NCBI GenBank assembly: GCA_041690105.1
Contig: JAWLHX010000003.1
Coordinates: 29,126 to 93,125 of the forward strand
Direction: 5' to 3'
Origin: Phycisphaerae bacterium
GTDB lineage: Bacteria > Planctomycetota > Phycisphaerae > FEN-1346 > JAACEH01
Length of the DNA: 64,000 nucleotides
Shown piece by piece: positions 18,520 to 64,000 of the stretch. The position numbers were made by a program, and so were the translations under genes. The notes under the pieces are model-generated. The model did no database searches. It was not told the DNA's origin and saw only the letters and a list, made by a program, of their open reading frames with translations. Position 1 is the stretch's first letter. Each line of letters starts with the position of its first letter.

Positions 18520-18654
18520 ACCGGATGGGTTGCCGAGTCAAGCATCAGGGGCAGGATGCCCATGCCACTGAAAACGGCCGCAACAAATAAAGACCAGTTG
18601 CACGCCGTGTCGGTTGCCGCCACTGATGGCAACTGACCGCAGTGCGACACGAAA

Positions 18655-29152: not shown

Positions 29153-29179
29153 TGCTGAACCAGTTGGAGACCGTAAGTT

Positions 29180-31644: not shown

Positions 31645-31947
31645 AGCAGAGCTACCTCCATGTAGTCTGAACCTGGCCACCAAGACCCCGCCGACGCTTT
31701 CCAGCCCACCGTGCGAGCCTGCCTTGCAGCCACTGACTTAGAGTCTGCCGATGGCCCCGGCGGTGTCAAATGAACCCGGCGGCAACGACACGTAAGGCGT
31801 TGCCGTGTAGCATGTTAGATAGAAATAAAAAATCTTCGGCAGAGGCTGGTCTGAGGCCAGAAAGCTAGCGTTTTATGGCTGGAAACACTCTTGGTGGGCG
31901 ACTTGACTGTTTTATGCGGCGGGGTGCGGCGGGCGCTGGTGCTTCCG

Positions 31948-46775: not shown

Positions 46776-47116
46776 TCCTGATGAAGGTTGTGGTGACCAA
46801 ACGTCTTGGCAGGACAGAAAATAACAGATGGCGGCCGGCTGGTCAATGTAATCGGCAGGGCGCGCCCTGGCGGGCTCAGGTGTCCAGCGGAGGCGGGCAA
46901 AAACTGCCTCTGGGCAAAGGTCGTATTATATTCCCGGCTAAAGACTTAGGGGGATTCAGGCAAAATGCGATTGGTTGGCTGCGGGTAGTCATGGTAAAAT
47001 AGATAAGGAGAAAGTAGGATTCAGTCCGATAAGCATAGGAGGCGATACGTTTGTCGTCCGCTTGCCGGTGGTGCTACCGGCCGAAGTCGGACTGGGATGT
47101 TTCCGGGAGGTGCAAG

Positions 47117-48664
47117 ATGAAGGCCATGAGAATAGCGGCTATTGTGGCGATCGTGGGTATTGTGGCGACGCCGGCCTTCTCCCAGTTGCAGCAGCCCGAC
47201 AGGCGTCTGGACCTGAGCACGCAGCCGACGTACGCTCCGTTCGGCCAGATGCCGCAGGATTATCGCGACTCGCCCAGCCTCTATTCCAGCGGCAATGTGC
47301 GTTACGGGCGAGCCTTTACGGGCAACCGCAATTTTCTTGAAGACCGTTACTTCAGTTCGCCCATCACCCGTTTCCAGCGCGACAGTTTTGGTTCGTACGA
47401 CGTTTATGGCGGCGGCAGGCAGTTTGGTGCGGCCCAGCCGTATTACGCTCCGGGCAGCCTTGTTTCGCGGGGCGACCTTGGCCGTGGAGCTACGGAGGTT
47501 GGCAGGCGGCCAGATCCATTCGGCATCGCGGCATCGCCTCCGCCGTCGTTTGCCGGTCCGGTCGATCCGGAACTGGACCGTCGGGTGATCGTGCCTGGTT
47601 CGGGGCCCCGGGCTTACACCCTTGAGCCATCCGCCGACAATGAGGATGCCTACGGCTTTGCTCCGCGGACGGAAGTGCCTTGGATGAACCAGGAGGGCAT
47701 GAGAAATCTGCAGGCAGCCATTGCGGCCCAGGAAGCTGTCAGTGATATGTTCGGACGCGGGCCCTTCGGCACGCCTCTGCCGCTGCAATGGCAGATGGAT
47801 CCGACTGCCGGCAGCGTTGAGGGCGAATTGCCGAACCCGTGGATTCTTCTGCCGGAGGAGGTTCGCCAGGGTTTGACGCCGGAGGAGGTCGAGCCGCCGC
47901 AGAATGGCGATCCGATGGCCGGCATCCGCCAGCGGTATTGGGAGGATCAGGAGCAGTTGGAGGCGGATTCGCTTCCGCCGTGGATGACTCCGGGCGAAGG
48001 GCGTTCGATGGAGGACCGTCTGCGCGAGGGCGAGGCTGAGCGTGACTCGTTTGGCGAGACCAATGGCGAAGAGCGTTCGGCTCTGACGCCTGACGAGATG
48101 TTGCCGCAGGGCGGCCCGCTGCACCCGGCCAATTTCGGCCAGAGGGCGATCAGGGTCGGGCGGATCAATCTGCAGGTTGGGCTTTATCGGCAGGCCATTG
48201 AGCAATTCGAGCGTGCGGCCACCTTCGACCGGAGCCTGCGCGAGGAGGCCAACAGGTTGGAAGGCCATGCCCACCTGCTGATCAGGGGCAACCGGATGGC
48301 GGCCCTGCTGATAAGCGACAGCATTGAGAATAGTCCGGAGCTTTACGGGCGCGATTATCGCCTGACCACTATTGTGGAAAACCAGGAGTTGTGGCAGCAG
48401 GCGGTCGAGCGAATTGGCCGGCAGGCCGACGATATGCCGCGGGCTACCATGTACCAGTTTCTGCACGGGTACCTGCTTTATGGGCTGGGGCGGCACGGGG
48501 AGGCCGAGCCCTACCTGAAGGCGGCAGCAGTGGAAGGCAGCCAATATGCCGAGGCAGCCCGAGCGCTGCTGAAGCAGGGTGAAGCGCAGGAGCAGGGTCA
48601 GGAACAGGCGCCGGAGCAAGGTCAGGAGCAGTCGCAGGATGCGGCCGAACCGGTGACGGAATAG
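47117..48664 (+). CDS. Secreted protein with long Pro/Gly-rich disordered region, C-terminal helical (TPR-like) domain and a QEQG low-complexity tail
   Basis: Likely start at internal ATG ~47117 (MKAMRIAAIVAIVGIVATPAFSQ signal peptide); the track ORF begins at 47051 in the same frame. The antisense 576-aa ORF is a shadow. Confidence 0.55.
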   Translation: MKAMRIAAIVAIVGIVATPAFSQLQQPDRRLDLSTQPTYAPFGQMPQDYRDSPSLYSSGNVRYGRAFTGNRNFLEDRYFSSPITRFQRDSFGSYDVYGGGRQFGAAQPYYAPGSLVSRGDLGRGATEVGRRPDPFGIAASPPPSFAGPVDPELDRRVIVPGSGPRAYTLEPSADNEDAYGFAPRTEVPWMNQEGMRNLQAAIAAQEAVSDMFGRGPFGTPLPLQWQMDPTAGSVEGELPNPWILLPEEVRQGLTPEEVEPPQNGDPMAGIRQRYWEDQEQLEADSLPPWMTPGEGRSMEDRLREGEAERDSFGETNGEERSALTPDEMLPQGGPLHPANFGQRAIRVGRINLQVGLYRQAIEQFERAATFDRSLREEANRLEGHAHLLIRGNRMAALLISDSIENSPELYGRDYRLTTIVENQELWQQAVERIGRQADDMPRATMYQFLHGYLLYGLGRHGEAEPYLKAAAVEGSQYAEAARALLKQGEAQEQGQEQAPEQGQEQSQDAAEPVTE

Positions 48665-48686
48665 TCTGAAGTTCAGAATTTTGCAC

Positions 48687-48715
48687 AAGGGCGGGCCATG
48701 CAGGCTCGCCCTTTT
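48687..48715 (+). terminator. Candidate intrinsic terminator between convergent genes
   Basis: AAGGGCG-GGCCATGCAGGCT-CGCCCTT followed by TTTCG, 23 nt after the 47117..48664 stop. Confidence 0.5.
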
Positions 48716-48908
48716 CGCATGGACTCGGGACCAGTGTGTGAAGCGTTCCACACCGAGAAGCCGCCTCTTGCCTCTTCACACTTTGGCGCCTGCTTCGCCA
48801 TTCGACAGGCTCATGACAGGCAGTCGCTCCAAAGTGTGGCACCCAAATTGCGACTCGATGGTGACACCCAAGCTGCGCCTCGATTTTGACCCACTCACCA
48901 GCGGGCGA

Positions 48909-51026
48909 CTATCGTTGCAGTAGCAGGATTGCTGTTGCCACCGCTGCGCCGAGGAGCAGGGCCAGCAGTATCCAGCGTCCGAGGCGATGCGTGCCCAGCG
49001 ATCCCGGCGGGTATTTTGGACGCCTGGTGAAGTAAAGTCGCTGGGTGCGGCTGAGTCGCATGCGGGCATTGATGGCCCAACCCGACCCTTCGAGTATGGC
49101 GCTGAGGTCGCGTCGTCGCAACTTGACGAGGGCCACGATGCTGGTTGGCAGCATGACGGCCAGGATGGCTCCGCCGAGTCCCGCCAGTATGATCCACCAG
49201 TTAAGGCCGGCCAGGGTACGGGTGATGAAGGCGGTGGCCGAGCCGAGGGCTGCCACGGCAATTCCGCCGCCCATCAGGAGATTTCCTGAGATTGCTGCCC
49301 GCTGTGCCTGGGGCGGGGCGGGTTCGGCTGCCGCGGCCTGCTGCGGGGCGGTTCCTTCCACCTGGGCAAAGGCCGTAGTGCCGGCGACGTCGAGCTTTTT
49401 TTCGGCCTCGGTGGTCATGGATTCGATTTTGCCGGTCAGCAGGCGGCCCAGTCTCTGGAATGGGGCCCAGATGGCCTCGGCCAGGCTGATCGGGTTTTCG
49501 ATGATCTGCAGTGTGCGGGCATCGAACTCGCGTCCAGTAATGTCGAGGAAAATGCCGCGCTTGCCTACGGCCAGGTTGCCCTTGTCGCCGCTTGTTACGG
49601 GAATGGCCACTTCGTACGGCGGATTTGCCGCCACCTCCAGATACATGACATACATGTTGCTGGTTTTGGAGAGCTCGATGTGCTGCGGGCGACTGTCGAC
49701 GCGGACAGCGAAGTTGAATCGTCGGCCATCCATGATCAGCGTGCCCATTTCGAACATAGCCCGGCTGGCTGGCTGATAAAGGTGCGGGAAGCTGACGAAG
49801 TTGTTGGCCAGGTCAATCATGTGAGCCTGGTAAAGGATCAGCTTTTCGGTCAGTCTGATGGTATCGAGGGCGAAGGCGGTGGCGGCACTTTCGGCCAGCA
49901 GGCTTTCGGCGGCTTCGGCATATTCCGGGCGGAGGAACATTCTCAGGGCATCGCGGCCCAGGGGCTCGACGGCGGGGCCTGCCTTGCTTTCCAGCCAAGC
50001 TTCGTGCGGGGCCAGTGCCGCGGCAATTCGCCTATAGTCGTCTTCCGACAGTTGGCTGACGTTTCGCTCCAGTATGGGCTCGGCGACCTTGGTGCGGAAT
50101 TCCTCCAGCCGCTGCCTGTACCACGGATTAAGAGGGGCGGCAAGGTCGAGTATGCCATCGGTTCGCAGGTCGGTCAGCGGGCTGCGCTTTAAGAGGTCGG
50201 CAATGGCCTCGGAATTCTCGAAGTCGGTCTGCTCAAGCTGGGCCGCAGGGGGCTTTACCTGGGCGGTTACCCGCGGATCGAAAGCGGCGGCCCGGCTCTG
50301 GGCGTAATATTTTTCCAGCTGATCTCGGATGGCCATCCAGGCGGCCATTGCCGCGGGGGTCTGCTCGGCCAGAGGCATTATTGCGGTGGGCGTCTCGGGT
50401 GCGGGCAAATCGGCCTTGGCTGCCCAGTCAAGGTAGCTCCTGGCTTCCTGCAGAAACCCGGTGATGTGCTGTCGCGTCACGCCCTGTTTTCCGCCCGGAT
50501 GCGCAGTCCCGCCAACGGTATCGAGCACGGCCTTCAGGAACTGTCGGACTTTTTCATCATCGGCGGCCTCGGGCAGGGCAATGCCTCCCTCGCTGACCGG
50601 CGTCTGGGTCACCTGCTGCTTTATCTGCCGCACCTCGTCCAGGGAGACGGTCTGCTCGTCCGGACGTCCGGCCCGGATGAGTATCCGCCTGACGGCCTCG
50701 AGAATGGTGCGACCGTCGGGGTGCGAGGTGTTGATGTCGGCAATGGTCAGGGTGAGCTTTTTATCGGTTACAGGCTGATGATTCTGCAGAAGTTGCAGGA
50801 GCCAGCTGATGGCGGTCCGCATGTCGTCGCAGGTTATGCGGCCATCGCTATCGATGTCGATGAGCGAAAGGAGCGTGGCATCGGCCCCCAGCATATTGAG
50901 CGGAGCGCTGGTGGCGACCCAAAGGGCCTTGTCGAGCTGCAGTATGTGCTGCAATTCATCGGCCGATTTGATGCTGAGGTGCAGAGAGCGTCCGAATCGT
51001 CGGAATCGCATGTGTCGTTGCGGCAT
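48909..51026 (-). CDS. Uncharacterised 705-aa protein with an N-terminal EF-hand Ca2+-binding loop and C-terminal membrane anchor (2-3 TM helices)
   Basis: DIDSDGRITCDD fits the canonical 12-residue EF-hand loop; C-terminal hydrophobic segments (GNLLMGGGIAVAALGSATAFI..., WWIILAGLGGAILAVMLPTSIVALV, WILLALLLGAAVATAILLL). Confidence 0.55.
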   Translation of the reverse strand: MPQRHMRFRRFGRSLHLSIKSADELQHILQLDKALWVATSAPLNMLGADATLLSLIDIDSDGRITCDDMRTAISWLLQLLQNHQPVTDKKLTLTIADINTSHPDGRTILEAVRRILIRAGRPDEQTVSLDEVRQIKQQVTQTPVSEGGIALPEAADDEKVRQFLKAVLDTVGGTAHPGGKQGVTRQHITGFLQEARSYLDWAAKADLPAPETPTAIMPLAEQTPAAMAAWMAIRDQLEKYYAQSRAAAFDPRVTAQVKPPAAQLEQTDFENSEAIADLLKRSPLTDLRTDGILDLAAPLNPWYRQRLEEFRTKVAEPILERNVSQLSEDDYRRIAAALAPHEAWLESKAGPAVEPLGRDALRMFLRPEYAEAAESLLAESAATAFALDTIRLTEKLILYQAHMIDLANNFVSFPHLYQPASRAMFEMGTLIMDGRRFNFAVRVDSRPQHIELSKTSNMYVMYLEVAANPPYEVAIPVTSGDKGNLAVGKRGIFLDITGREFDARTLQIIENPISLAEAIWAPFQRLGRLLTGKIESMTTEAEKKLDVAGTTAFAQVEGTAPQQAAAAEPAPPQAQRAAISGNLLMGGGIAVAALGSATAFITRTLAGLNWWIILAGLGGAILAVMLPTSIVALVKLRRRDLSAILEGSGWAINARMRLSRTQRLYFTRRPKYPPGSLGTHRLGRWILLALLLGAAVATAILLLQR

Positions 51027-51186
51027 GATGTGTTGGCCTCATCGAGCTCCGGGCACGCGGCCGGCCCGCACGGGCATCTGGGCTTGTGCGGGTGCAAGCT
51101 TAAGTGCACAGTTGGCCGCTTGTCAAGGCAGCAGTGCGAAAGTGGTGCGAAGAGTTGCGGCCGGAAAGGCTGTCGGCAGCAACGTC

Positions 51187-52575
51187 TTACAGGCATTCCG
51201 GCAGGTTAATGCTGTCGGAGCCGGGCTGCAGGATGCTTCGCAGTTGGTAGAATCGCTGCTCCAGGCGATGGCGATCGTAAGGTTCGGCAAGGGCGGCGCC
51301 GACCCGTTGGGTCATCAGTCCTTGGTGCCAGAGGACCTCTTTTCGGTCGGGCAGGGTGGTGCGACGGGCGATGCGTATAAGGTTTTCCATGATGCGCACC
51401 AGAGTTGCCGGTGAACGGGTAGCGTTGTGGCGGATCTGGTCAAAAGATATGTCGCAGAGACCGCGGAAGTCAGTCCGCCTCATTATTACTCGGAGCCGCC
51501 CCTGCTGGTCGCGCAGTCCGGACGGAGGCATGTGGCGTTGAGCAATTCGCAGCATGGCGTCGCCGATGTAGTCGAGAGCATTGCCGGCCGTAAAGGGATC
51601 GTTAATGCTGGGCGAGAGAGCCCGCAAGGCCACTTCGACCAGTTCCTGGATGACGAAGTCAAGATCCTGCGTGGCGCTTCGCTGGGCCCCGATGTAAAGG
51701 CTGTCATGCAGCTTGCGGGTCAGCTCGTCGCTTAGCTGTTGGGCCGGCAGCAGCCTGATGAGCGGCTCGTCCTGGACGACAAAGTCGCCGGGTTGGCATA
51801 CCAGGCGTATCTGCAGATCGTGTTTGACGGCCAGCGACATCAGGATCTTGAGGTCGACGGCCTGCAGATATCCGGTATCGGGTGCGCTTACACTTGCGGC
51901 CTCGCTCCATGGCGGTTCGGTAATAGGTACCTCAGTCTCTGGGGCACTGTCGGGACGGGAATTAGCCGGGCCGTCGCTCCTGTGTTCGTCCAGGCAGTCG
52001 GGCAGCACACGGTCGATGGTCTGGCGCAATTCTTTGGAAACGACCATCAGCACATGCGGGGCCTGGATGCTCTTGGCCAGGTGGTGCATGAAGTAGATGA
52101 GCATAGCCAGGCTGATCAGGCCGAGCAGCAGGGCGACCATGGTAGTCAGCTGAGGCAACCTTTTGGGGTCCGAAGTAATAACGCGCTCCATAGCCAGCAA
52201 CAGAACCTGGAAGTAGATGAAGGTGGCGACGAAAACGCCGAGAACCAATTGGTTGACCTTGTCGCGCATAAAGTTGCGCAGCAGTCGCGGGCCGAGCTGA
52301 CTTGCGGCCAGGGTCAGGGCCACGATTGTTATGGAAAACACCACGCCCAGGACAGTGATGATTGAAGCGGCCATGGATGAGAAGAGAGCCCTGGAGCTGT
52401 CGATGTCGGTAATTGACATCCACTGGTTGACCCACTCAGGCCAGGCCAGTTTCAGGTATTCATCGATGTATAGTAAAGCGAACGCCAACAGTAGGGCGGC
52501 CGCGGCCATGGCTGCCGGCACAAACCAGAAACTGGTGGTTAGCCTGTCGGCCAGTTGCTGTAGCCAGGTTTTCAT
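51187..52575 (-). CDS. DUF2254-family membrane protein
   Basis: N-terminal 4-5 TM helices followed by a ~250-aa soluble domain; overall layout and size (462 aa) match DUF2254. Confidence 0.5.
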   Translation of the reverse strand: MKTWLQQLADRLTTSFWFVPAAMAAAALLLAFALLYIDEYLKLAWPEWVNQWMSITDIDSSRALFSSMAASIITVLGVVFSITIVALTLAASQLGPRLLRNFMRDKVNQLVLGVFVATFIYFQVLLLAMERVITSDPKRLPQLTTMVALLLGLISLAMLIYFMHHLAKSIQAPHVLMVVSKELRQTIDRVLPDCLDEHRSDGPANSRPDSAPETEVPITEPPWSEAASVSAPDTGYLQAVDLKILMSLAVKHDLQIRLVCQPGDFVVQDEPLIRLLPAQQLSDELTRKLHDSLYIGAQRSATQDLDFVIQELVEVALRALSPSINDPFTAGNALDYIGDAMLRIAQRHMPPSGLRDQQGRLRVIMRRTDFRGLCDISFDQIRHNATRSPATLVRIMENLIRIARRTTLPDRKEVLWHQGLMTQRVGAALAEPYDRHRLEQRFYQLRSILQPGSDSINLPECL

Positions 52576-53054: not shown

Positions 53055-53714
53055 ATGCCGGAGCCTGTAACCATTATCGGGTTTGGAGCTGGTGTGCTGG
53101 GTGTGGCCACTCATTTGGCCAGGCGCTACTTTGATTCGGCGAAGGAGGTGTTCGACATCATACTTGGTTGCATGCTTTTTGTGGCCATATTGCCGCTCAT
53201 GCTGCTGTGTGCGTTGCTGATCAAAATCAGCGACCGCCATGGTCCGGTGATTTTCTCACAGGTCAGGACGGGACGCAACGGCAAGCCGTTCACGATGTAC
53301 AAGCTTCGCTCGATGTACCGTAATGCGGAGTCGGCCAGCGGGGCCGTGTGGGCTGAGCGTGACGATCCGCGGATCATGCGTCTGTGCCGCTGGATGCGTT
53401 GGAGCCACGTTGACGAGTTTCCGCAGCTGATCAACGTGATCAAAGGCGATATGTCGATTGTCGGGCCACGACCCGAGCGTCCGGAAATCATGGCCGAGCT
53501 GGAGAAGGTATATCCGGAGGTTCGCAAGCGTCTGGCGGTTCGGCCCGGCATTACTGGCCTGGCCCAGGTGCGTAACGGGTACGACACAAGCGTTGAGGCT
53601 TTTCGTCACAAGCTGCTGAGCGATCTGGAGTACATTGAGACGCGTCGCTGGAGCAGCGAATTAAGGATCCTGGCCGCCACGGCGACCAAGCTGGTCGACC
53701 GAACGGCCCATTGA
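53055..53714 (+). CDS. Bacterial sugar transferase (polyprenyl-phosphate glycosyl-1-phosphate transferase, WbaP/EpsB-like C-terminal domain)
   Basis: GPVIFSQVRTGRNGKPFTMYKLRSM...DEFPQLINVIKGDMSIVGPRPERPE is the PF02397 signature; first gene of the PEP-CTERM-associated EPS locus. Confidence 0.85.
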   Translation: MPEPVTIIGFGAGVLGVATHLARRYFDSAKEVFDIILGCMLFVAILPLMLLCALLIKISDRHGPVIFSQVRTGRNGKPFTMYKLRSMYRNAESASGAVWAERDDPRIMRLCRWMRWSHVDEFPQLINVIKGDMSIVGPRPERPEIMAELEKVYPEVRKRLAVRPGITGLAQVRNGYDTSVEAFRHKLLSDLEYIETRRWSSELRILAATATKLVDRTAH

Positions 53715-53901
53715 AGGGCGGATTATCAGGCTGTCGTGCTGGTGTTTCGGAGACGCTGCACGACGGCAGTCGAGACAAGTTGAGCTGTCATGGGGGCTGC
53801 CAACGGCTTCCGGGTTTTGCGGCAGTGTTCAGCATCGGGATAGTTGGCCGGAGGCGATGGTATCGCTGCCGGAAAGAGGGACCTGAGGGGGAGGATTTAA
53901 T

Positions 53902-54600
53902 ATGAAGTATGCAACTGGGGCCGTCGGAATCGTGTTGTTGCTGCTGGTAGCAACTGGCAGCGCTTCCGGGGCTTTGACCGACTGGGGCAGCGGTCAGGTC
54001 AGAATGGTAACTGACGCCGATGAAGGGTTCATGCCGGGGCGTGAGATTTTACAGGCCTGGCACAAATACGATGCCGGCACGCACTATTTCCGGATTGACC
54101 TGGAGACGGCGCCCATGGGGCCGCCGCATTTGCCGCCGAGCTTTGCCGGCATTTATGGCTTTGCCATCAATACGGACCTTGCCAGCGGGGCCGACGGCTT
54201 TCATCCGTACCTGGCTTATGCCCCGAACGTGCAGAACATCGATTATCTGATCGATGCCCACTATGAATCGTTTTCGCCGTACCCGAATCCGGCCCAGTTG
54301 CTGTACAGCCATTATCACGACTGGGAGGATACGGCGTTTGCGGTCGAGCCGCTGGACAGCGTTGGCGGGCAGTTCCAGCGCAGCGGACCGAGCACGCTGG
54401 AGTGGTCCATTGCGGATGATCTGATCGGCAGCCCGGGAGCCACGAGGTTCAGCTGGTGCGCCTACAGTCTGGATGCCGGCAGCGAGACGGCCAAGTATGA
54501 CCTGGCCTGCTCGTTCATACCGGAACCTCTGACAATGCTGGCTTTCGGTATGGGGCTGGCTGGCGTGGGCGGTTATGTGCGCCGCAGGATTAAAGGCTGA
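53902..54600 (+). CDS. PEP-CTERM-anchored secreted protein, paralog A (uncharacterised ~200-aa domain)
   Basis: Signal peptide (VGIVLLLLVATGSASGA); C-terminal IPEPLTMLAFGMGLAGVGGYVRRRIKG PEP-CTERM sorting signal; ~55% identical to paralog B. Confidence 0.75.
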   Translation: MKYATGAVGIVLLLLVATGSASGALTDWGSGQVRMVTDADEGFMPGREILQAWHKYDAGTHYFRIDLETAPMGPPHLPPSFAGIYGFAINTDLASGADGFHPYLAYAPNVQNIDYLIDAHYESFSPYPNPAQLLYSHYHDWEDTAFAVEPLDSVGGQFQRSGPSTLEWSIADDLIGSPGATRFSWCAYSLDAGSETAKYDLACSFIPEPLTMLAFGMGLAGVGGYVRRRIKG

Positions 54601-55380
54601 AGATGAGAGTTTTGTGAAGAGGTTGAAACTTGCCGACCCGGCCGCGGGAGCAGTGTCCCGGGGGTCGGCAAGAGCTTGGAGTGGTGCAGGCTGTAACGTG
54701 CTGCGAGTGCTGTACATCAGAATGCGGCATTGAAGCGTAGGACTATGGGGATAGTTGCTGCAAGCGCTTTGAATGCCTGTCGTACGAGGGAAAACCGAGG
54801 GGGACTGCGGCCGGCGTTTCTGGTTGCTGCCTGGCGACTTGTGCCATTGTGGTGCGGGTTGCGGCAGTGCCGAAAGCCGTCGGTCGCGGGCGACGGAAGA
54901 ATCTTCGCCTGCTGTCATCTGGGGCGGAGGCCGATCGGAACGGAGCGATCGGTTTGGCGTGTCCGTCGTCGGGTGCGACTGCGGAAAAGGATTTTGCGCA
55001 GTTCACCGTCTTGCTGAGTGCGGGTGACTGATTCTGCTGAAGTTACTGGCAGGGTTGGCGCCGCCGGCATGGCCGCAGAGCGGCCGGAATGGTTCCTTCG
55101 TACGAAAGGCGTTGACATGAGCGTGATGTTCGGCAGGAAACTTACCAGCATTACAGTTGCCCGCCATCGCGAGTACCCTCTGTGGGTATGGCCACGCCGC
55201 GTACGAGTGTGTGAACCTGACCAGCCAATCGAAGCCGAAGCATCAGTTGGACAGACGGCCTGTGTTTGTGGAGGGTCTGCCTGCTGGAAAACTCTGCGCA
55301 GAACATCGGCCGGGGATAAACTCACTTGCGGTCACGACGGGCGTGGCCAGAAGAAACAACTCGTTAAGGGGGACACTGTA

Positions 55381-56079
55381 ATGAACAAACTGCGTGTACT
55401 GACAACTTTGATTGTGCTGTTGCTGATGTGTAGCCCATCGTGGGCGGCGTTGACAGATTGGGGCGTTGGAGCTGTTGAGCATGTTGCCGATCCGGATGAG
55501 GGCTTCATGGCCGGCCGCGAAATTCTTAATGCGTGGCACAAGTACGACGTGGAGAGCCAGATGCATTTCTTCAAGATGGAGCTGAAGGCTGCTCCGATGG
55601 GGCCTGTCCATCTGGAGCCGAGCTTCGCCGGCATCTACGGATTTGCCCTGAATACCGACCTTGGCACGGGTATTGACGGCTTTACGCCGGGCTTGACCTA
55701 TGCTCCGAATGTGCCTTCGATTGACTATTTGATTGACGCGCATTACGAGTACGCGGGCATTCTGGCTGCTCCGCCTGCCTTCCAGGTTGCCCATTATCAT
55801 GAATGGGACGAGCCGCTTTTTGTTACCGAGAATCTGCTCTCGATTGGCGGCGACTATGCACGCACCGGCAAAGTTCTGGAATGGGCCGTGCCAGACAGCC
55901 TGATCGGCAACCCCGGTTCCGAGCGGTTCTCCTGGTGCGCCTACACGCTTGACGGCGGCAGCGAGACGGCCAAGTATGACGTGGCCTGCTCGGTTATTCC
56001 GGAGCCGCTGACCATGGCTGGTCTTGGTCTGGGGCTGGCCGGCGTAGCGGGCTACCTGCGTCGTCGCAAAGCGGCCTGA
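55381..56079 (+). CDS. PEP-CTERM-anchored secreted protein, paralog B
   Basis: Start at ATG 55381 (MNKLRVLTTLIVLLLMCSPSWAALTDWG; AGGGGGA RBS); the track ORF begins at 55018 in the same frame. C-terminal IPEPLTMAGLGLGLAGVAGYLRRRKAA. Shared blocks with A: ALTDWG, EGFMxGREILxAWHKYD, PSFAGIYGFAxNTDL, IDYLIDAHYE, RFSWCAYxLDxGSETAKYD. Confidence 0.75.
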   Translation: MNKLRVLTTLIVLLLMCSPSWAALTDWGVGAVEHVADPDEGFMAGREILNAWHKYDVESQMHFFKMELKAAPMGPVHLEPSFAGIYGFALNTDLGTGIDGFTPGLTYAPNVPSIDYLIDAHYEYAGILAAPPAFQVAHYHEWDEPLFVTENLLSIGGDYARTGKVLEWAVPDSLIGNPGSERFSWCAYTLDGGSETAKYDVACSVIPEPLTMAGLGLGLAGVAGYLRRRKAA

Positions 56080-56372
56080 TGTTTCGGTCTGCTGCTGTTG
56101 CGTCTCGCGCCCGAAAGGGGGCGCGGGGCGCAGAGGTCCGTGCATGTAACGAACTGTGACTACAGAAGGCTGGGACGGGCGTCTCCTTATACGGGTCAGG
56201 GGGGCGTCCGTCTGGCACACCTCTGGCTCCGGCGGCCATGCGAGCCCTGAAGTATTGTTGATCACTCTGGCATTATTTACAGACCGCCGGAAAATTTTTC
56301 AATGGTCGGGCGCGCTTGTACGCAGATCGTGTTAGAGTAAAGCGACGCCAGTAGTACGGTTTCTGACATCCC

Positions 56373-57302
56373 ATGGACCCGCTGTTCAGCCTGTCATTTG
56401 CAAGGGGGGGAACCCAAATGAACGAGAGGCCTTATTTACTCCGTGCGCTATCTGTGGTGACAGCAGTCATGTTGCTGGGCGGGTTGCTCGGCGGTTGCGA
56501 AGCGCCTGAGCGAGATTCGGAGATGCTGGCTCGCTTCATGCAGACGCCACGTTCGCCGATTTCGGGTGTCAACTACAAGGTTTTGCCGCCCGATGTGCTA
56601 TCGGTGCAATCGCGCTTTGTTCCCGAAATACACGACGTGGTCCAGCAGGTGCGGCCAGATGGTATGGTCAATCTGCCGCTGGTGGGCGAAATATATGTTG
56701 CCGGCCTGACGCCACGAGAGATCGAGCAGCAGATCATCAAAGCGGCCGGCCGCTACTACGAAGACGCCGACGCCACCATCAGCGTGGCCCAATACAACTC
56801 GCAGCGAATTTACGTGTTTGGTCAGGTCTCGGCACCAGGTCCGCAGCAATGGACCGGCACGAATACCCTGCTGGATGTACTGGCACGCAGTCAGCCGACC
56901 AACCTGGCCTGGCCCGAGCGTATACGGCTGGTGCGTGGGCAATCGCCAAAGCGCGGTGGTTATCTGACGGCTGAGGACCAGGAGCAACTGGCCAGGGTTG
57001 TCAACGATGGCCTTGTGCCTGTCGAGGCAGTTCCGGCCGATGAGGGGTCGCGCAGCGACGTAGCCACCAACGGCTGGGTCGAAGAGCCCATGGTCATGGA
57101 AATCAACCTCAAGAAGATGGTTGAGACTGGCGACCTTTCGCAGAACGTTTTGCTGCAACCAGACGACGTGGTTTACGTGCCGGCCAATCCTCTGGCCGCG
57201 GTTGGTCTGACAATTCAGCAACTGCTGTTCCCGATACGCCCGGCGGTGGAGACGATACGTACGCCGGCCACCATCAGCGGCAGTACGGATTTGATTCCCT
57301 GA
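56373..57302 (+). CDS. Polysaccharide export protein (Wza/EpsA-like, Poly_export + SLBB domains)
   Basis: VRPDGMVNLPLVGEIYVAGLTPREIEQQI matches the Poly_export PF02563 core; lipoprotein-like LLGGC (start may be internal ATG ~56418). Confidence 0.8.
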   Translation: MDPLFSLSFARGGTQMNERPYLLRALSVVTAVMLLGGLLGGCEAPERDSEMLARFMQTPRSPISGVNYKVLPPDVLSVQSRFVPEIHDVVQQVRPDGMVNLPLVGEIYVAGLTPREIEQQIIKAAGRYYEDADATISVAQYNSQRIYVFGQVSAPGPQQWTGTNTLLDVLARSQPTNLAWPERIRLVRGQSPKRGGYLTAEDQEQLARVVNDGLVPVEAVPADEGSRSDVATNGWVEEPMVMEINLKKMVETGDLSQNVLLQPDDVVYVPANPLAAVGLTIQQLLFPIRPAVETIRTPATISGSTDLIP

Positions 57303-57342: not shown

Positions 57343-59016
57343 ATGAAACAGCACGGCAAGACACCGCGCGACATACTGCGGATAGTTTTCAGGCGCAGGT
57401 GGTTGTTTGTCTTCAGCAGCATCGTGTTAATGCTGATCATACTGGGCAGCGTGCCTTACTGGCCGCGGCAGTATACGGGCGAGGCGATTTTCGAGACCAG
57501 TACCGATCCGGCCTCGGACGACCTGATGCAGCAGGGCAGCCATTCGTTTGAAGCGGTGCAGGGCACCTTGCGGCAGGAGCTTTCGGGTCGCAGCGCCATC
57601 GAAGAAGCGCTGCAGACTCTGAAGAAGACCGAGGGCCTGCCGCGCGAGCCGGGCAGCAACCAGCTTACCGACCAGGGCATGATGATGTTTCAGGAGATGG
57701 TGCGCGAAGTGCAGAGCCGCGTGGTGGTCTCGACCGACGTTCCGGGCCGCAGCGTGAATTACATTCGCGTCAGGTACACGGATTCTGATCCGAAGCTGGC
57801 CCAGGACCTGCCTAATCAGCTTGTTTTCCAGTACCGCGTGCGTAAGCCCGAGGAGCGCCTGAAGAGTCTCGAGGGCAGCCGCGAGTTTCTGCTGAGCCGG
57901 GCCCAATCGATCGAAAAAGCTCTGCGCGAGCTGGAGAAACAGCGGGACGATATGGAATCGAAGAACCGGGGCATTATGCCCGACAGCCTGGCCTCGCTGA
58001 CTAAACAACTGGAGGATCTGCGAACCGAATTGCGGGTGGCTACCACGCAGCGTGATGCGGCCCGGCAGCGGGTGGCCGGTCTGAAGGAGGTACTCGACAG
58101 GGCATCGAGCCAGACCGAACCGATCCAGGAGACGCGTGGGCCTAATCCTGAGTTGCAGGACCTTCGCGAGCAACTTCGCCAAAGCCGCCGCATGCTGGAA
58201 GGCATGGTTCCCCCGGTGGGGCGGATGAAGGAAGAGCATCCGGACGTAATCGCCCTGCGCAGCAGCATCGAGCAGATGGAATTGCGGCTGCAGGATCTGC
58301 CGGACGAGGTGGTAATTACCAAGGTCTATGGCACGCCGGAATCGGTGGCCGTGTATCGCATGCAACTGGCGGCAGCCGAGGCCGATTACAACACGCGTAA
58401 CGATGAAATTGAGCGAATGGAAGCCCGGCTTGCGGCCCTGGAGGATCTGAGCACGAACTACCTGCCGGTTCGGCAGCAGTTTCACGAGTTGTCATCGCAG
58501 ATAGCTCGCCGGCAGACGGAGATGGAGGAAGCCCAGGAGCAGTTGCGCGAAATCGAACGCCACGTGGATGCCGAGGTGCGCCATCGGGCCCTGCGACTGC
58601 AGACCATTCAAGACGCCCAGAAGCAGTATCTGCCGAGTTTTCCGCAGCTGTGGCACATATTGGCGGCGGCCATCATCGGCGGACTGTCGGCCGGTGCGGG
58701 CCTGGTGTTTCTGGCCCATGCCGTCGATCGCACGGTCGGCACCAGCGACGAGGCCGACGAGGAGTTTGGCGTGCCGGTTTGCGGCGTAGTGAGCGAAATT
58801 GTGACACCGCGCCAGCGAATTGCCCGGCGGCTTGTTTTCTGGGGGCTCGGGCCGGCTGTAACAGCGGTGCTGATGCTGGCCATGGGGGCGGTCTTCCTGA
58901 ACGCCATGCTGTGGCTGCAGTATCCGGAGGAATACGCCCAGTGGCGGCACAACCCGCTTGGTTATGTTTCGCGTCAGGTGGACACGCAGATCGATCGCCT
59001 GCAGCAATTGCGATAG
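57343..59016 (+). CDS. Polysaccharide chain-length determinant protein (Wzz/GumC family, PEP-CTERM-locus subfamily)
   Basis: N- and C-terminal TM helices flanking a long coiled-coil periplasmic domain; 557 aa; locus context. Confidence 0.75.
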   Translation: MKQHGKTPRDILRIVFRRRWLFVFSSIVLMLIILGSVPYWPRQYTGEAIFETSTDPASDDLMQQGSHSFEAVQGTLRQELSGRSAIEEALQTLKKTEGLPREPGSNQLTDQGMMMFQEMVREVQSRVVVSTDVPGRSVNYIRVRYTDSDPKLAQDLPNQLVFQYRVRKPEERLKSLEGSREFLLSRAQSIEKALRELEKQRDDMESKNRGIMPDSLASLTKQLEDLRTELRVATTQRDAARQRVAGLKEVLDRASSQTEPIQETRGPNPELQDLREQLRQSRRMLEGMVPPVGRMKEEHPDVIALRSSIEQMELRLQDLPDEVVITKVYGTPESVAVYRMQLAAAEADYNTRNDEIERMEARLAALEDLSTNYLPVRQQFHELSSQIARRQTEMEEAQEQLREIERHVDAEVRHRALRLQTIQDAQKQYLPSFPQLWHILAAAIIGGLSAGAGLVFLAHAVDRTVGTSDEADEEFGVPVCGVVSEIVTPRQRIARRLVFWGLGPAVTAVLMLAMGAVFLNAMLWLQYPEEYAQWRHNPLGYVSRQVDTQIDRLQQLR

Positions 59017-59026
59017 GAGTAAGTAA

Positions 59027-59869
59027 ATGTACTTGTCTCATTATCAGCTTGAGCAGTATCCGTTTGCTCTGGCCTTCGAGCCCGCATTTTTCTTCGAGAG
59101 CACGATCCACGGGGAAGCTCTGGCCAACATGGTTTACGCCGTTCAGCAGCGCAAGGGCATGGTACTGGTGACCGGTGAGGTCGGGGCTGGCAAGACCTTC
59201 GTGGGCAATGTGCTGTGCGAACGTCTGGGGCCCTCTGCCATTGCCATCATGCTGAAGAATCCGCCGCAATCCGCCAAACAGTTGCTTCGCGTGGTGGCCC
59301 AGCGTACGGGTCTTAATGTTCGTGGCGGGGCAGACAGGATGGACCTGGCGGAATCGCTGGAGAATCATCTTTCGCGGCTGAATTCCCGCGGACGCCTGGT
59401 GGCCCTGGTGATGGACGAGTCGCAGGAGCTTGGCGGGCCGACCTTGGAGGAGCTGCGTCTGATGTGGAACTGGGAGGACCGGGGTCAGCGCCTGCTGCAG
59501 ATGGTGCTGCTCGGGCAGCCCGAACTGCGTCAGAGAATCCAGGAGCCGCGCTGGGAGCCTTTGCGGCAACGCATTGTGCTCAGCTATCACCTTGGTCGGC
59601 TGACGGCCGAGGATGTTGCCCGCTACGTTGATCATCGCATTCGCATGGCTGGCGGCCGCGACGAGATGATTGGTTTTGACGAGGAGGCCCTGAACGCCAT
59701 TTACATGGCCACCGAAGGTACGCCCCGCCTGATCAACGTGCTGTGCGACAACGCCCTGCTGGTTGGCTATACGCGGGGTCTGCATCGGCTTGATCGGGAT
59801 GTTGTTGAAGACGTACTGCGAGACATGACCTGCTGGGGCCTGAACGTTTCGCAGAGTTCGGCTGTCTGA
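59027..59869 (+). CDS. ExeA-like AAA ATPase (PEP-CTERM/XrtA-system-associated ATPase, TIGR03015-like)
   Basis: N-terminal PF/FF motif, Walker A VLVTGEVGAGKTF, Walker B LVMDESQ; conserved position in PEP-CTERM EPS loci. Confidence 0.75.
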   Translation: MYLSHYQLEQYPFALAFEPAFFFESTIHGEALANMVYAVQQRKGMVLVTGEVGAGKTFVGNVLCERLGPSAIAIMLKNPPQSAKQLLRVVAQRTGLNVRGGADRMDLAESLENHLSRLNSRGRLVALVMDESQELGGPTLEELRLMWNWEDRGQRLLQMVLLGQPELRQRIQEPRWEPLRQRIVLSYHLGRLTAEDVARYVDHRIRMAGGRDEMIGFDEEALNAIYMATEGTPRLINVLCDNALLVGYTRGLHRLDRDVVEDVLRDMTCWGLNVSQSSAV

Positions 59870-59904: not shown

Positions 59905-60897
59905 GTGGGACACGTGCGTGACGCCATGAATAAGTTTGACTCGGAGACGGTTGAGCCCAAGCGGCCGAACGGTGGCGGGAAGAGCGAGAGCGATTCCGGT
60001 GCTCGCCCATCCGCGGTATCGCGGGCGGTGCAGCAGGCCGAACGCGAGCGGGAGCAGTCGTCGTACGCCGCCGGGCTGGACGCTTGTTCGGTTGGCAGCC
60101 GCGGGCAAAACTTTTCGGCATCGGAAGGCCTGGCCGAGGATAACGTAAAACCAGTGGCTGCAGCCATTGCGGCAGGTGTGGCCACGCGTCGCTCTTCGTC
60201 GACCGTTTCGACCAAGGCTCAGCCGGCACCGCGCTTTGCCGAAGCGGCGGTCGTCCAGCGGGAGAAGGGTTCTATGATCAGCGAACAATACAGAATATTG
60301 CGGACCAATCTGATGGCCCGTTTCGAGGATCGACGCTTCTGCGTCATGGTAACTTCGGCCGAGGCCGGCGAGGGCAAGAGCGTGACCACGGTCAACCTGG
60401 CCCTGGCTCTGGCCGAGTTGCAGGAAGGGCGAACGCTGATTGTCGATTGCGACCTGCGCAAAGGTCGCCTGGCCAAGCTTTGCCGCGGACCGGAAGCACC
60501 CGGCGTGTACGAAGTGCTTCGCGGACAGGCCGAGCTGCGTACAGCCTTGCATCCGACTGGCGTGCCGAACCTGGACATACTGCCTGCGGGCCGACTGTCG
60601 CCGAACGATGCCGGTGAACTCCTGGGCCGGCCGGAACTGGCGGAGATGGTCTGCGCCCTGCGTCGCCAGTACGAGTTTGTCCTGGTCGATACGCCACCGG
60701 TCAATCGTGTGAGCGATGTTGGCATGATTGGCCGTTGCGCCGGCGATGCCCTGATGGTAGTGCGGATGAATCGGACCAGTCGCGAGGCGGTCAACAAGGC
60801 CATGCGTCTGCTGCACGCAGTAAACATAAATGTTGCCGGTCTGGCCCTGACGCATCAGAAATACTTCATTCCGAATTACATTTACAAGTACGCCTAG
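59905..60897 (+). CDS. Exopolysaccharide tyrosine-protein kinase (BY-kinase cytoplasmic domain, MinD/ParA-like)
   Basis: Walker A-like VMVTSAEAGEGKSVTTVNLALALA, Walker A' LIVDCDLRKG, Walker B FVLVDTPP; Tyr-rich C-terminus NYIYKYA. Confidence 0.8.
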   Translation: MGHVRDAMNKFDSETVEPKRPNGGGKSESDSGARPSAVSRAVQQAEREREQSSYAAGLDACSVGSRGQNFSASEGLAEDNVKPVAAAIAAGVATRRSSSTVSTKAQPAPRFAEAAVVQREKGSMISEQYRILRTNLMARFEDRRFCVMVTSAEAGEGKSVTTVNLALALAELQEGRTLIVDCDLRKGRLAKLCRGPEAPGVYEVLRGQAELRTALHPTGVPNLDILPAGRLSPNDAGELLGRPELAEMVCALRRQYEFVLVDTPPVNRVSDVGMIGRCAGDALMVVRMNRTSREAVNKAMRLLHAVNINVAGLALTHQKYFIPNYIYKYA

Positions 60898-60962: not shown

Positions 60963-62021
60963 GTGCGCAGGGGGGCTGCCGGCATGCTGGAGGTGGGCGC
61001 TTTTCAACCAGATGAGCGAACGGAGTGGCAGGACTATGTGCTGGCCCATCCGTCGGCCACAGTTTTTCATCGGCTGCAGTGGAGCGATGCCGTGGTCGAG
61101 GCCTATGGTCATCGGCAGGTGCACCTGACGGCCAGACGGAAGGGCAGGCTTGTCGGCATACTGCCCCTGATGGAAGTGCGCAGCATGCTGGCCGGCCGGG
61201 CACTGGTGAGCATACCCTATGCCACCTACGGCGGAGTGCTGGCCGACGACGCCGAGGCGGGCCGTAAGCTACTGCAGGCGGCCCAGCAGAAGTGTCGCCA
61301 GGACAAGTGGAAGCTGCTGGAGCTCAGGCATCGTGACAAATCGGGCCTGGACCTTCCGACAATCGACCGTTACGACACTTTCCGCAAGCGCCTGCCTGAG
61401 AAGATCGAGCAGGTGCTGGATGGTTTGCCGCGCAAGGCTCGTGCTGCAGCCCGCAAGGGTCGGCGCGAACTGCCGGCCGATGCCGTTGTCATCGGGCCGC
61501 AGTATCTGGACGATGTTTACAAGCTGTACACGGTGACCTTGCGACGGCTCGGATCCCCCAACTATCGGCGCAAACTTTTCCAGGCTTTGCAGCGGAGCTA
61601 TGGCTCGGACTGTGTGGTGCTGCTGGTGCGCGACGGGCAGCGTCCGATTGCAGGCGTGGTGAGCTTTATTTTCCGCGACGAGATTGTGCCTTACTTTTCC
61701 GGCAGCGTCGAGGCCGGCATGTCGCGCAATGCCAACAATGTCATGTACGTTCACCTGATGGAGTATGCGGTGCGGCGGGGGCTGAAGTGGTTCGACTTCA
61801 ACCGCACCCGTCGCGACAACCAGGGGCCGTACGATTTCAAGCGGCACCATGGCTTCGAGCCCACGCCACTGCAGTACCAGGTGTGGCTCTCCAATGGCGG
61901 CGAGGCCCCGAACATCAGCCCGAGCAATCCGACCTTTGCTCTTGCCGGGCAGGTGTGGCGGCGGATGCCTCTATGGCTGACGCAGGCGGCCGGCGAACGG
62001 GTCACCAAGTGGATACCGTGA
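60963..62021 (+). CDS. FemAB-related GNAT-fold protein, PEP-CTERM-system-associated (TIGR03019-like)
   Basis: WQDYVLAHPSATVFHRLQWSDAV...YATYGGVLADD...KWKLLELR layout characteristic of FemAB-like acyltransferases in XrtA loci. Confidence 0.65.
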   Translation: MRRGAAGMLEVGAFQPDERTEWQDYVLAHPSATVFHRLQWSDAVVEAYGHRQVHLTARRKGRLVGILPLMEVRSMLAGRALVSIPYATYGGVLADDAEAGRKLLQAAQQKCRQDKWKLLELRHRDKSGLDLPTIDRYDTFRKRLPEKIEQVLDGLPRKARAAARKGRRELPADAVVIGPQYLDDVYKLYTVTLRRLGSPNYRRKLFQALQRSYGSDCVVLLVRDGQRPIAGVVSFIFRDEIVPYFSGSVEAGMSRNANNVMYVHLMEYAVRRGLKWFDFNRTRRDNQGPYDFKRHHGFEPTPLQYQVWLSNGGEAPNISPSNPTFALAGQVWRRMPLWLTQAAGERVTKWIP

Positions 62022-62095: not shown

Positions 62096-63487
62096 ATGAA
62101 GCGTCTGCTGATGCTGACACATCGTCTACCGTATCCGCCTGACAAGGGTGAACGCGTGCGAGCCTTCGAGGCCCTGCGTGCCCTGTCGTCGCGCTTCGAT
62201 ATTGTGCTGGCCAGCCTGTCGGAGAGCCGGAACGAACTTGCCCGCGCGGCCGATGGCCTGCGGCCCTGGTGCCGGCAGGTGCTGGCGGCCCCGCTGCGCC
62301 GCAAACTGGCCCTGTGCCGGGGCGCCTGTCGCCTGGCCATGGGTGGGAGCGTCACCGAGGGCTATTTTGCCAGCCGCAGACTGTCCCGGCTTGTGCTGGA
62401 TGAGGCGTGTCGGCAGCCTTTCGACATCGTCTTGGGTTATTCTTCGGGCATGTTGCCGCTGGCCTTGCGCGTGCCGGCCGCGGGGCGCGTAATGGACCTG
62501 GTCGATGCCGATAGCGCCAAGTGGCGCAGTTATTCTCGGGCCGGGCGGGGAATGCTCTCCTGGGCCTATCAACGCGAGGCCCAGGGTGTTGCGGCACTGG
62601 AGCAGCAGGCGGTGCGGCAATGCCATGCCGTGCTGCTGATAAGCCAGGCGGAGGTGGCCGCACTGGGCATCCGCAGCGAGAGGCTGATGGCCGTCGGCAA
62701 CGGCGTTGACGCTGCGTTCTTTGATCCGGCGGCCCCATTCGATGACACGCGCGGCGAGGGAGACAAATCGTCGGCCGGGTCGCCTGAAAACGAAGGCCGG
62801 GCAGATGAGCAGTCCGACAGTGCAGGCGGGCGGCTTGTCTTTACCGGCACGATGAATTATCGGCCTAATGTCGAGGGCATCGGCTGGTTCGTCGAGCACG
62901 TCTGGCCGGCGGTGCGACGGCTGAGGCCCGCATGCCAACTGCAGATTGTGGGCCGCAACCCGACGCCTGCTGTTTGGCGGTTGGCAGATGCAGCGGGGGT
63001 GGAGGTAACCGGGGCCGTGGCCGATGTGCGGCCATATCTGCGCCAGGCCTCGCTGGCAGTTGCTCCGCTGCGGATTGCTCGCGGGGTGCAGAACAAGGTG
63101 CTTGAAGCGATGGCCATGGCCCGCCCGGTGGTAGCCTCGTCTGCGGCCATGGAGGGGCTTGAGGTGGAGGCGGGCCGGCATCTGCTGCGGGCCGATTCGC
63201 CGCAGGAATGGGTGCGGGCCGTGGACCAGGTGTTGAATGATCCGGCCGCAGCCCGCGAGTTTGGCCGCCGTGCCCGGCAGTGCGTGCTGGAACGTTATTC
63301 GTGGCCGTCGCGCATGTCGCCGCTGGTCGAGCTCTGTTGCCGCTTGTCGCAGCAGGCCGTTGGCGACGCAGCCTCGGCTATCCCCACGACCCGGGCGGAC
63401 CGCGCAGGTCACCTGTCGGGCCAGGCTGAGGCCGAGGATTGTTCGATGATGACTTTGTCGCCCAATGGCGAATTGGGGGGCAAATGA
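62096..63487 (+). CDS. Family-4 glycosyltransferase (PEP-CTERM/EpsH1-associated sugar transferase stp1-like)
   Basis: LTHRLPYPPDKGERVRAFE N-terminus and C-terminal GT-B E-x7-E region (VLEAMAMARPVVAS); 463 aa. Confidence 0.75.
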   Translation: MKRLLMLTHRLPYPPDKGERVRAFEALRALSSRFDIVLASLSESRNELARAADGLRPWCRQVLAAPLRRKLALCRGACRLAMGGSVTEGYFASRRLSRLVLDEACRQPFDIVLGYSSGMLPLALRVPAAGRVMDLVDADSAKWRSYSRAGRGMLSWAYQREAQGVAALEQQAVRQCHAVLLISQAEVAALGIRSERLMAVGNGVDAAFFDPAAPFDDTRGEGDKSSAGSPENEGRADEQSDSAGGRLVFTGTMNYRPNVEGIGWFVEHVWPAVRRLRPACQLQIVGRNPTPAVWRLADAAGVEVTGAVADVRPYLRQASLAVAPLRIARGVQNKVLEAMAMARPVVASSAAMEGLEVEAGRHLLRADSPQEWVRAVDQVLNDPAAAREFGRRARQCVLERYSWPSRMSPLVELCCRLSQQAVGDAASAIPTTRADRAGHLSGQAEAEDCSMMTLSPNGELGGK

Positions 63488-64000
63488 GCGCCAGGCGAAT
63501 TATGCGCAACGTGCTGACGAACTGGGCCGGCCACGGGCTGAACGTGGTGGTCCTGTTCTTCCTCACGCCGCTGATAATCGACACCCTGGGCAAAACTCAG
63601 TACGGCGTCTGGAGCACGGTCATAATGCTGACCGGCTACCTGGGCGTGCTGGACATTGGCATTCGCGGCAGTACGGGCCGGTACATCATCTACCACATCG
63701 GTCGGGGCGACGCCGACGGCGTAAACTCGGTGGTCCGCACGTCGCTCGGTTTCTTCAGTGTAACAGGCGTTGTCATGATGCTGGCGGCCGCGCTGCTGGG
63801 GATTGTAGCTCCCGGCTGGTTCAAGGGCCTTCCGGCCGACCTCGCCGGGCTGTTTCCTCTGCTCGTGCCGCTACTGGCCCTTAATACCTGGATGGCTGCC
63901 GTCTCTGTCATCTATTCCAACGTGCTGGCCGGGCACGACCGCTTCGACCTGACTCAGGGCGTCAACGTGGCGGTGCTGCTGGCCCGCTCGCTGGGCACAG
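63484..64000 (+). CDS. Polysaccharide biosynthesis flippase (Wzx/MOP family), N-terminal 172 aa; runs off window end
   Basis: Own translation from ATG 63484 (ATGA overlap with the GT4 stop): MSARRIMRNVLTNWAGHGLNVVVLFFLTPLIIDTLGKTQYGVWSTVIMLTGYLGVLDIGIRGSTGRY..., several TM helices, no stop before position 64000. Absent from the ORF track because it is open-ended. Confidence 0.6.
   Translation, partial: MSARRIMRNVLTNWAGHGLNVVVLFFLTPLIIDTLGKTQYGVWSTVIMLTGYLGVLDIGIRGSTGRYIIYHIGRGDADGVNSVVRTSLGFFSVTGVVMMLAAALLGIVAPGWFKGLPADLAGLFPLLVPLLALNTWMAAVSVIYSNVLAGHDRFDLTQGVNVAVLLARSLGT

Follow-up and report, generated by a model that had tools for sequence, protein, structure and literature searches.

A tandem pair of paralogous genes, referred to here as A and B, lies within a 64,000-nucleotide (nt) stretch of DNA from a Phycisphaerae bacterium (contig JAWLHX010000003.1, positions 29,126 to 93,125 of the forward strand; hereafter the window), and both genes code for small secreted proteins that end in PEP-CTERM sorting signals. 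The pair sits inside an exopolysaccharide (EPS) locus of the XrtA type, between the gene for the priming sugar transferase and that for a Wza-like exporter, in an order that is conserved in a related organism, and the mature domain of the two proteins, predicted to fold as a beta-sandwich, has relatives in several phyla. Exosortase systems are common in environmental bacteria, and PEP-CTERM cargo of unknown function is a familiar category in which many families have been catalogued; to our knowledge, few cargo proteins have a known role and the relation between cargo and polysaccharide is unsettled. From the features described below we infer that A and B undergo exosortase processing, have a surface location and bind glycan. 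Our preferred reading, which we hold with about even confidence and which leans on an analogy set out below, is that A and B may be exosortase-sorted surface or matrix proteins that bind the polysaccharide of their own locus.

Both genes were recognised as open reading frames (ORFs) with profile matches, gene A (the A-type paralogue) at 53902-54600 and gene B (the B-type paralogue) at 55381-56079, each on the plus strand and each coding for 232 amino acids (aa). An AGGGGGA ribosome-binding site, read from the sequence, precedes each of them on the same strand (53886-53892 for A and 55367-55373 for B). The reading frame of gene B extends 5' as far as a GTG at 55018; the ATG at 55381 was taken as its start because AGGGGGA lies just 5' of it and no codon-position GC bias is seen further upstream. 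In a codon-position GC plot, the GC content at third positions (GC3) was 0.70-0.79 for the two genes. Their products are made up of a putative signal peptide (aa 1-23 in A, aa 1-22 in B), a predicted beta-sandwich domain (53971-54510, ~180 aa, in A; 55447-55989 in B) and a PEP-CTERM tail (54517-54597 in A; 55996-56076 in B), all encoded on the plus strand. As read from the sequence, the N-termini consist of a basic start, a hydrophobic run and then a SWA↓A or ASG↓A site, and residues 2-15 form a lone helix in the AlphaFold model of the gene B protein. BLASTP found the two proteins identical at 131 of 208 positions (63%, E 8e-98), or 59% over the full length. An earlier note on this DNA had put the identity at ~55%; the paralogy it proposed stands and the true figure is somewhat higher, and the two 232-aa ORFs, all five sequence blocks that it quoted, the IPEPLTM tails and the AGGGGGA sites are all present. 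Just before the PEP motif lies a cysteine pair, C186 and C203 (B numbering, as for all residues below), which the close clade shares with some of the other family members and which would fit an extracytoplasmic disulfide. As a separate observation, the signal peptides of the B type have a Cys in common (LLMC, LVAC, LLVC), seven residues ahead of the ALTDW with which the domain starts; the stretch concerned is 55423-55446 in gene B and 6642-6710 on contig L002, from the related organism, and it is also seen in the family member P0002. A canonical lipobox is matched by the signal peptide of P0002 only, and A-type proteins have no such Cys.

At their extreme C-termini both proteins read IPEPLTM...RRR, with the PEP motif followed by a hydrophobic helix and then by a cluster of basic residues. 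These tails score 22.3 bits (A) and 25.0 bits (B) against PF07589 (cut-off 20.7) and 17.9 and 22.8 bits, respectively, against TIGR02595 (cut-off 16), so that both exceed the curated Pfam and TIGRFAM cut-offs and the PEP-CTERM status proposed for the two proteins is confirmed. The window encodes three PEP-CTERM proteins, the third being a small ORF on the minus strand (31303-31737, ~145 aa from stop to stop) with the tail IIPEPSTMALLGIGLGLLVARR and a PF07589 score of 26.2 bits; its mature part is unrelated to A and B.

The EPS locus begins with the gene for a priming polyprenyl-phosphate sugar-phosphate transferase of 219 aa (53055-53714; this gene and those that follow are on the plus strand), identified by a match to PF02397 (Bac_transf, E 1e-58). 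Its best NCBIfam models, TIGR03025 and TIGR03013, both fall short of their cut-offs, as this small protein has the C-terminal catalytic part only. Downstream of gene B come genes for a Wza-like outer-membrane polysaccharide export protein (Poly_export/SLBB; 56373-57302; PF02563 and PF22461), a Wzz-like chain-length determinant (57343-59016; TIGR03007, 131.6 bits, cut-off 278.85), an AAA ATPase nearest to an XrtA-system-associated family (59027-59869; TIGR03015, 238.2 bits, cut-off 324.5; PF13401), and a polysaccharide tyrosine autokinase (59905-60897) that passes TIGR01007 (131.3 bits, cut-off 108) and falls below the cut-off of TIGR03018 (136.7 bits). These are followed by a FemAB-family XrtA/PEP-CTERM system-associated protein (60963-62021; TIGR03019, 329.4 bits, cut-off 260.35), a PEP-CTERM/XrtA system glycosyltransferase of the stp1 type (62096-63487; TIGR03087, 393.9 bits, cut-off 316.65) and the start of an ORF that runs past the end of the window and resembles a Wzx-type flippase by eye (63484-64000; translation MSARRIMRNVLTNWAGHGLNVVVLFFLTPLII). 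TIGR03019 and TIGR03087 are curated markers of the XrtA/PEP-CTERM system, and both of these marker genes exceed their curated cut-offs. For the exporter, the chain-length determinant, the ATPase and the kinase, the best models are again those of the XrtA system (TIGR03027, the XrtA/PEP-CTERM system export protein; TIGR03007; TIGR03015; and TIGR03018), all of them below cut-off, as expected of equivalog scores in a distant phylum. The Bac_transf and Poly_export/SLBB matches bear out the earlier placement of A and B within the EPS locus, after a priming transferase and before a Wza-like exporter, and the two marker genes show the locus to be of the XrtA type. The transferase has a feature of its own, in that its N-terminus (53055-53130, plus strand) reads MPEPVTIIGFGAGVLGVATHLARR, where a PEP motif precedes a hydrophobic helix and two arginines (RR); this resembles a sorting tail but is N-terminal, matches the tail of the family hidden Markov model (HMM) weakly (E 0.13) and is also conserved in L002 (3791-3860).

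In several respects the pair conforms to the PEP-CTERM/exosortase system as described (XrtA, EpsH; Haft et al. 2006, PMC1569441; TIGR02595, PF07589): A and B lie within an EPS locus that carries XrtA marker genes, they have no other recognisable domain, and several such proteins are encoded in one genome stretch. The pair departs from that description in that the host is a Phycisphaerae-like planctomycete, the window around A and B contains no exosortase (see below), no sigma-54/PrsR-type motif (-24/-12 site) lies 5' of A or B, and the mature domain falls outside the curated PEP-CTERM families. The affiliation of the host is reflected in its Dxs protein, which shares 66-67% identity with proteins from MAGs labelled 'Planctomycetes bacterium' and 'Phycisphaerae bacterium' (MAG, metagenome-assembled genome).

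Evidence that the placement is not accidental comes from L002 and L003, two ENA contigs from a related organism, in which an upstream membrane-protein gene and Bac_transf are followed by an A-type gene, a gene for an unrelated 206-aa PEP-CTERM protein, and a B-type gene; the Bac_transf gene of the window and its L002 orthologue are 77% identical at the nucleotide level. This conserved order of transferase, A-type and B-type genes argues for dedicated rather than random placement. In a neighbour-joining tree, window A and L002 A form an A-type clade, and window B, L002 B, P0002 and P0094 form a separate B-type clade, implying that the duplication predates the split between the lineage of the window and its nearest sampled relative. 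Between orthologues, the ratio of nonsynonymous to synonymous substitution rates (dN/dS) is ~0.12 for A and ~0.13 for B, with synonymous sites saturated; since both genes are under purifying selection, they probably have distinct or cooperating roles. The 206-aa PEP-CTERM gene of L002 (5436-6056) occupies the interval between A-type and B-type genes at the point where the window is non-coding, and cargo genes seem to be gained or lost at this site.

On a further contig, L010, the genes that come after a B-type gene code for a response regulator and an alginate-export-type porin; the upstream side is cut off. More distant homologues in Desulfobacteraceae, ~30-36% identical, always lie directly after gspF in a type II secretion cluster, as seen in four distinct places, and this cluster adjoins polysaccharide genes (a flippase, ATP sulfurylase/APS kinase and epimerases). 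In seven contigs from Desulfobacula and other Desulfobacteraceae (L005, L006, L007, L008, L009, L011 and L012) the homologue is found at 10001-10690, in a cluster with gspD/E/C/M/K/J. The position next to gspF may hint at how such cargo exits the cell. Placement within an EPS locus is thus conserved in the close clade, and the link to polysaccharide genes recurs without being universal: the expectation that homologues would always lie beside XrtA-type EPS loci holds for the close clade and fails for the type II cluster of Desulfobacteraceae and for one distant relative, L013, to which we return below.

At the level of sequence, the mature domain of A and B matches no family in Pfam or NCBIfam and has no significant profile match in the Protein Data Bank (PDB), where the profile search returned only an insignificant hit to the BH0236 protein (5t7a, E 0.19-0.56). 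When 33 family members were compared with Pfam and NCBIfam, only sorting-signal matches appeared, even at E<=10, in agreement with the earlier statement that the domain could not be assigned to a known family. Close relatives are few. A word-indexed search of 5.8 billion proteins returned four sequences, namely A, B, one Logan protein and one ENA protein; a near-identical Logan sequence and an uncalled L002 gene bring the close clade to ~6 sequences, and pattern scans with the close-clade alignment found no further close relatives in GTDB species genomes or JGI metagenomes. An exhaustive HMMER search of 1.84 billion representatives with the mature-domain profile gave 80 matches at E<=1e-3, 28 at E<=1e-10 and 3 at E<=1e-30. 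Three long matches (P0026, P0065 and P0066) are repetitive and were discarded as artefacts, and the genuine family comprises ~77 clusters in several phyla, so that on sequence similarity the domain is not unique to the A/B pair.

Nearly all genuine matches are 210-250 aa long and have the same three-part architecture. In 80 of the 91 collected members the C-terminus consists of a PxP motif (PEP or VPLPA-type variants), then a hydrophobic helix, then a cluster of basic residues, and the 11 that have no such tail are mostly truncated predictions or fragments. Among the exceptions are two longer proteins: P0073 (476 aa) has a long extension that ends in a PEF-type tail, presumably akin to archaeosortase signals, and in P0030 (978 aa) cohesin and HYR domains and a dockerin-like end come after the family domain, a fusion that would fit an extracellular binding module. 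Members with a named source belong to MAGs of Desulfobacula, Desulfobacteraceae and Sulfuricurvum and are annotated only as hypothetical or 'sorting domain-containing'. Judged from these sequences, the domain is an uncurated family tightly coupled to exosortase-type tails. Neither a well-known family unconnected with exosortase nor a scatter of homologues lacking PEP-CTERM tails, the two outcomes that the earlier note had set against its own proposal, emerged from the searches.

Structural models of both proteins were generated using AlphaFold2. The full-length model of the gene B protein, built from the family alignment, has a predicted local distance difference test score (pLDDT) of 88.3 and a predicted template modelling score (pTM) of 0.80, and the model of the mature domain of A has a pLDDT of 87.9 and a pTM of 0.87; both are beta-sandwiches of ~12 strands. 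Their structural neighbours, with scores in brackets, are Sas6, a CBM26/CBM74 protein (11.1, at a root-mean-square deviation of 12 A and with a poor global fit), glucodextranase (10.3), ethylbenzene dehydrogenase gamma (9.5), the putative carbohydrate-binding protein 4jpq (9.3), CBM9 (8.4), the cytochrome domain of cellobiose dehydrogenase (7.8), NxrC (7.8) and the DOMON domain of dopamine beta-hydroxylase (7.5). Foldseek placed the same proteins on top for both models, with probabilities of 0.91-1.0; 1i82, 2ivf_C, 1d7c, 4zel and 1ulv are structures of the CBM9/DOMON/ethylbenzene-dehydrogenase-gamma-like beta-sandwich superfamily. On these models the domain is a distant structural relative of the CBM9/DOMON group and not a demonstrable member. 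The literature groups these neighbouring proteins in a single DOMON superfamily, with a sugar or a haem as the ligand (PMC4846438). In A and B the domain stands alone with its sorting tail and is not joined to an enzyme. No paper in the literature searched links PEP-CTERM with DOMON. The earlier suggestion of a lectin-like or matrix component fits this distant CBM9/DOMON-like predicted fold, with sugar binding as a proposal.

Under the mechanism that we envisage, the tail would anchor the exported protein in the inner membrane until an exosortase, whose gene presumably lies later in the locus, cleaves it at the PEP motif, and the ~180-aa domain would then be delivered to the cell surface or slime layer, where it could bind the polysaccharide of the locus and so retain or cross-link slime on the cell. 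The glycan-tethering part of this proposal is modelled on the behaviour of PepA in floc-forming Aquincola, where overexpression of PepA lowers soluble exopolysaccharide and raises the cell-bound fraction (PMC9850573). PepA (Aquincola, Zoogloea; NF033554; PMC9850573) is, like A and B, a small secreted PEP-CTERM protein tied to an EPS system. The mature domains are unrelated. NF033554 gives 18.4 and 19.3 bits with A and B (cut-off 80) over residues ~191-230, which cover the tail only. Unlike A and B, PepA is sigma-54 regulated and is encoded beside prsT, not inside an export operon.

A number of observations weigh against this reading of A and B as polysaccharide-binding exosortase cargo. An exosortase gene was not found in the 64-kb window, where the scan took in the larger ORFs of the other 53 kb, the 27 largest beyond the EPS locus; the EPS locus itself continues past the window end at 64000. 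The earlier description of A and B as dedicated exosortase cargo therefore divides in two, the dedicated placement being upheld by synteny in L002/L003 and the link to exosortase being read from the tail. In L013 (4628-5281; Phycisphaerae MAG contig JAWLCQ010000201.1), a distant member with a normal PEP-CTERM tail does not lie in an EPS locus, and its neighbours, judged by eye, are thiC-like, PAP2-like and acyltransferase-like ORFs. Foldseek gave no match at E<=1e-3 and TM-scores of only ~0.4 (0.34-0.43), which amounts to a remote fold match, and sequence profiles show no similarity to the superfamily, as PF06452, PF16011, PF03351 and PF09459 (CBM9/DOMON/EB_dh) had no match in the 33 members at E<=10. 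Conservation within the domain points the same way. Across 28-33 divergent members the invariant residues are I48, P72, H121 and H140, so that the two histidines are the sole invariant polar residues of the core family; W27, D37, F64, R65, D67, Y86, G87, Y107, P109, D115, D119, G163, E167, W168 and D200 are conserved in at least 90%. The ligand residues of such folds are a Trp pair for sugar in CBM9 and Met/His or Met/Lys for haem, and in sequence the two invariant histidines look more like a metal or haem site than an aromatic sugar platform.

The histidines give rise to the main rival explanation, which we consider unlikely: that the domain is a metal- or haem-binding module of the DOMON type, with the histidines as ligands, serving redox chemistry, ion handling or a metal-stabilised fold and not acting as a lectin. 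Besides H121 and H140, the acidic residues D67, D115, D119, E167 and D200 (each in at least 90% of members) would suit it, as would the haem-binding proteins among the structural neighbours and the precedent of ZepA, a PEP-CTERM exoprotein that binds zinc via histidines (PMC10957091), given that A and B carry an H-Y-H triplet. Against it, the histidines are lost in more distant members (for example P0054, P0057, P0071 and P0072), no redox-partner, haem-handling or metal-uptake genes lie near the pair, whose context is polysaccharide synthesis, and ZepA is not homologous outside the tail. Kinship with ZepA, suspected from the H-Y-H triplet, was rejected, as only the tail aligns (hhalign probability 23%). 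ZepA from Anabaena, also reported from the Planctomycetes-Verrucomicrobia-Chlamydiae (PVC) superphylum (PMC10957091), does resemble A and B in layout, with a signal peptide (putative in A and B), a mature domain that is rich in beta structure and has conserved histidines, and a PEP-CTERM tail; unlike them it has two domains, an H-X2-9-H-[FY]-H site near the N-terminus and Zur-regulated zinc neighbourhoods. A histidine brace like that of lytic polysaccharide monooxygenases was also rejected, because the mature N-terminus is Ala-Leu-Thr and not His.

The same invariant histidines and conserved Asp and Glu residues, together with the location in a polysaccharide locus, could be taken as the catalytic residues of a small enzyme that modifies or cuts extracellular polysaccharide (a lyase, esterase or transglycosylase). 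We regard this as the least probable of the alternatives, as the informative structural neighbours are all non-catalytic binding modules or cofactor carriers, no enzyme family in Pfam or NCBIfam matches, and the histidines are not retained in the distant members.

The arrangement of the pair for expression bears on a third alternative. The spacer between A and B (54601-55380), which is also the long upstream region of gene B, is exactly 780 nt long, as the earlier note stated, and is non-coding: its GC content is flat over all three codon positions, unlike that of the flanking genes. A decayed gene in the spacer was ruled out by tblastn with the 206-aa PEP-CTERM protein of L002, by a six-frame search with the family HMM and by the codon-position GC plot. 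No Rfam family matches anywhere in the window, and the spacer contains no sigma-70-like site. According to Haft et al., more than 65% of PEP-CTERM genes stand as units of one gene, preceded by more than 200 nt of non-coding DNA (PMC1569441), which makes the spacer typical of its class. A GC-rich hairpin just 3' of gene A (54629-54672, plus strand; RNA fold -38.2 kcal/mol, z -2.26) is a possible terminator, without a U-tract and not called by a terminator scan, and a strong GC-rich hairpin lies 3' of gene B (56099-56132, plus strand; -50 kcal/mol, z -4.07); hairpins after A and after B suggest separate transcription units. Further downstream, a sigma-54-like element, TGGCAC-N5-TGGCT, is found at 56213-56228 (plus strand; 9 of 11 consensus positions), 145 nt 5' of the Wza-like gene, and sigma-54-like matches are not enriched over the window as a whole.

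Having its own ribosome-binding site and hairpin, each gene could be expressed separately and possibly strongly, which is compatible with A and B being structural subunits of a surface layer, sheath or fibre that co-assemble without binding a specific ligand or glycan. The retention of both paralogues under purifying selection since before the lineages split would also suit such a role. We nonetheless judge it improbable, and less likely than the reading of the domain as a metal or haem module, since the domain is a small globular unit in which a polar cluster is conserved, no repeats, low-complexity linker or oligomerisation motif are present, and in L010 a B-type gene has no visible A-type partner, with the upstream side of that contig cut off.

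Elsewhere in the window, three large ORFs on the minus strand lie directly upstream of the EPS locus (47021-52575; 576, 705 and 462 aa), and no NCBIfam model matches them; synteny with L002 holds for the 462-aa membrane protein (MKTWLQQLAD...). An arylsulfatase is encoded at 45402-46775. A heavy-metal-type resistance-nodulation-division (RND) efflux set on the plus strand (14175-22776) comprises an OEP protein, an HlyD protein with heavy-metal-binding domains and a 1373-aa AcrB-like pump, and is followed by a quinone-biosynthesis group (23380-30328, plus strand) with UbiD, UbiE, flavoprotein, UbiA and MqnC-like radical SAM domains.

The analysis reveals no new type of system; the family itself was previously uncatalogued. 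What is new is the definition of this family with a confident predicted fold and a two-histidine signature, an A/B pair fixed in an EPS locus, and the placement of Desulfobacteraceae relatives in type II secretion clusters. The A/B pair has a fixed position in one planctomycete lineage, between the first and the export steps of the polysaccharide pathway, making it a concrete candidate for a tether between slime and cell; the practical gains are a new model with which the family can be annotated and a connection between cargo and polymer that can be tested. More speculatively, the pair may be a protein component of the slime encoded by the locus itself, with exosortase coupling DOMON/CBM9-like domains to the polysaccharide, A and B acting jointly, and the two-histidine site binding a metal or cofactor through which the matrix would be cross-linked or redox-modified, a picture that we think unlikely. 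If it were true, the family could offer a tractable model both for the attachment target of exosortase and for the passage of cargo over the outer membrane, because the cargo and polymer genes are adjacent here and the Desulfobacteraceae relatives lie in a type II secretion operon.

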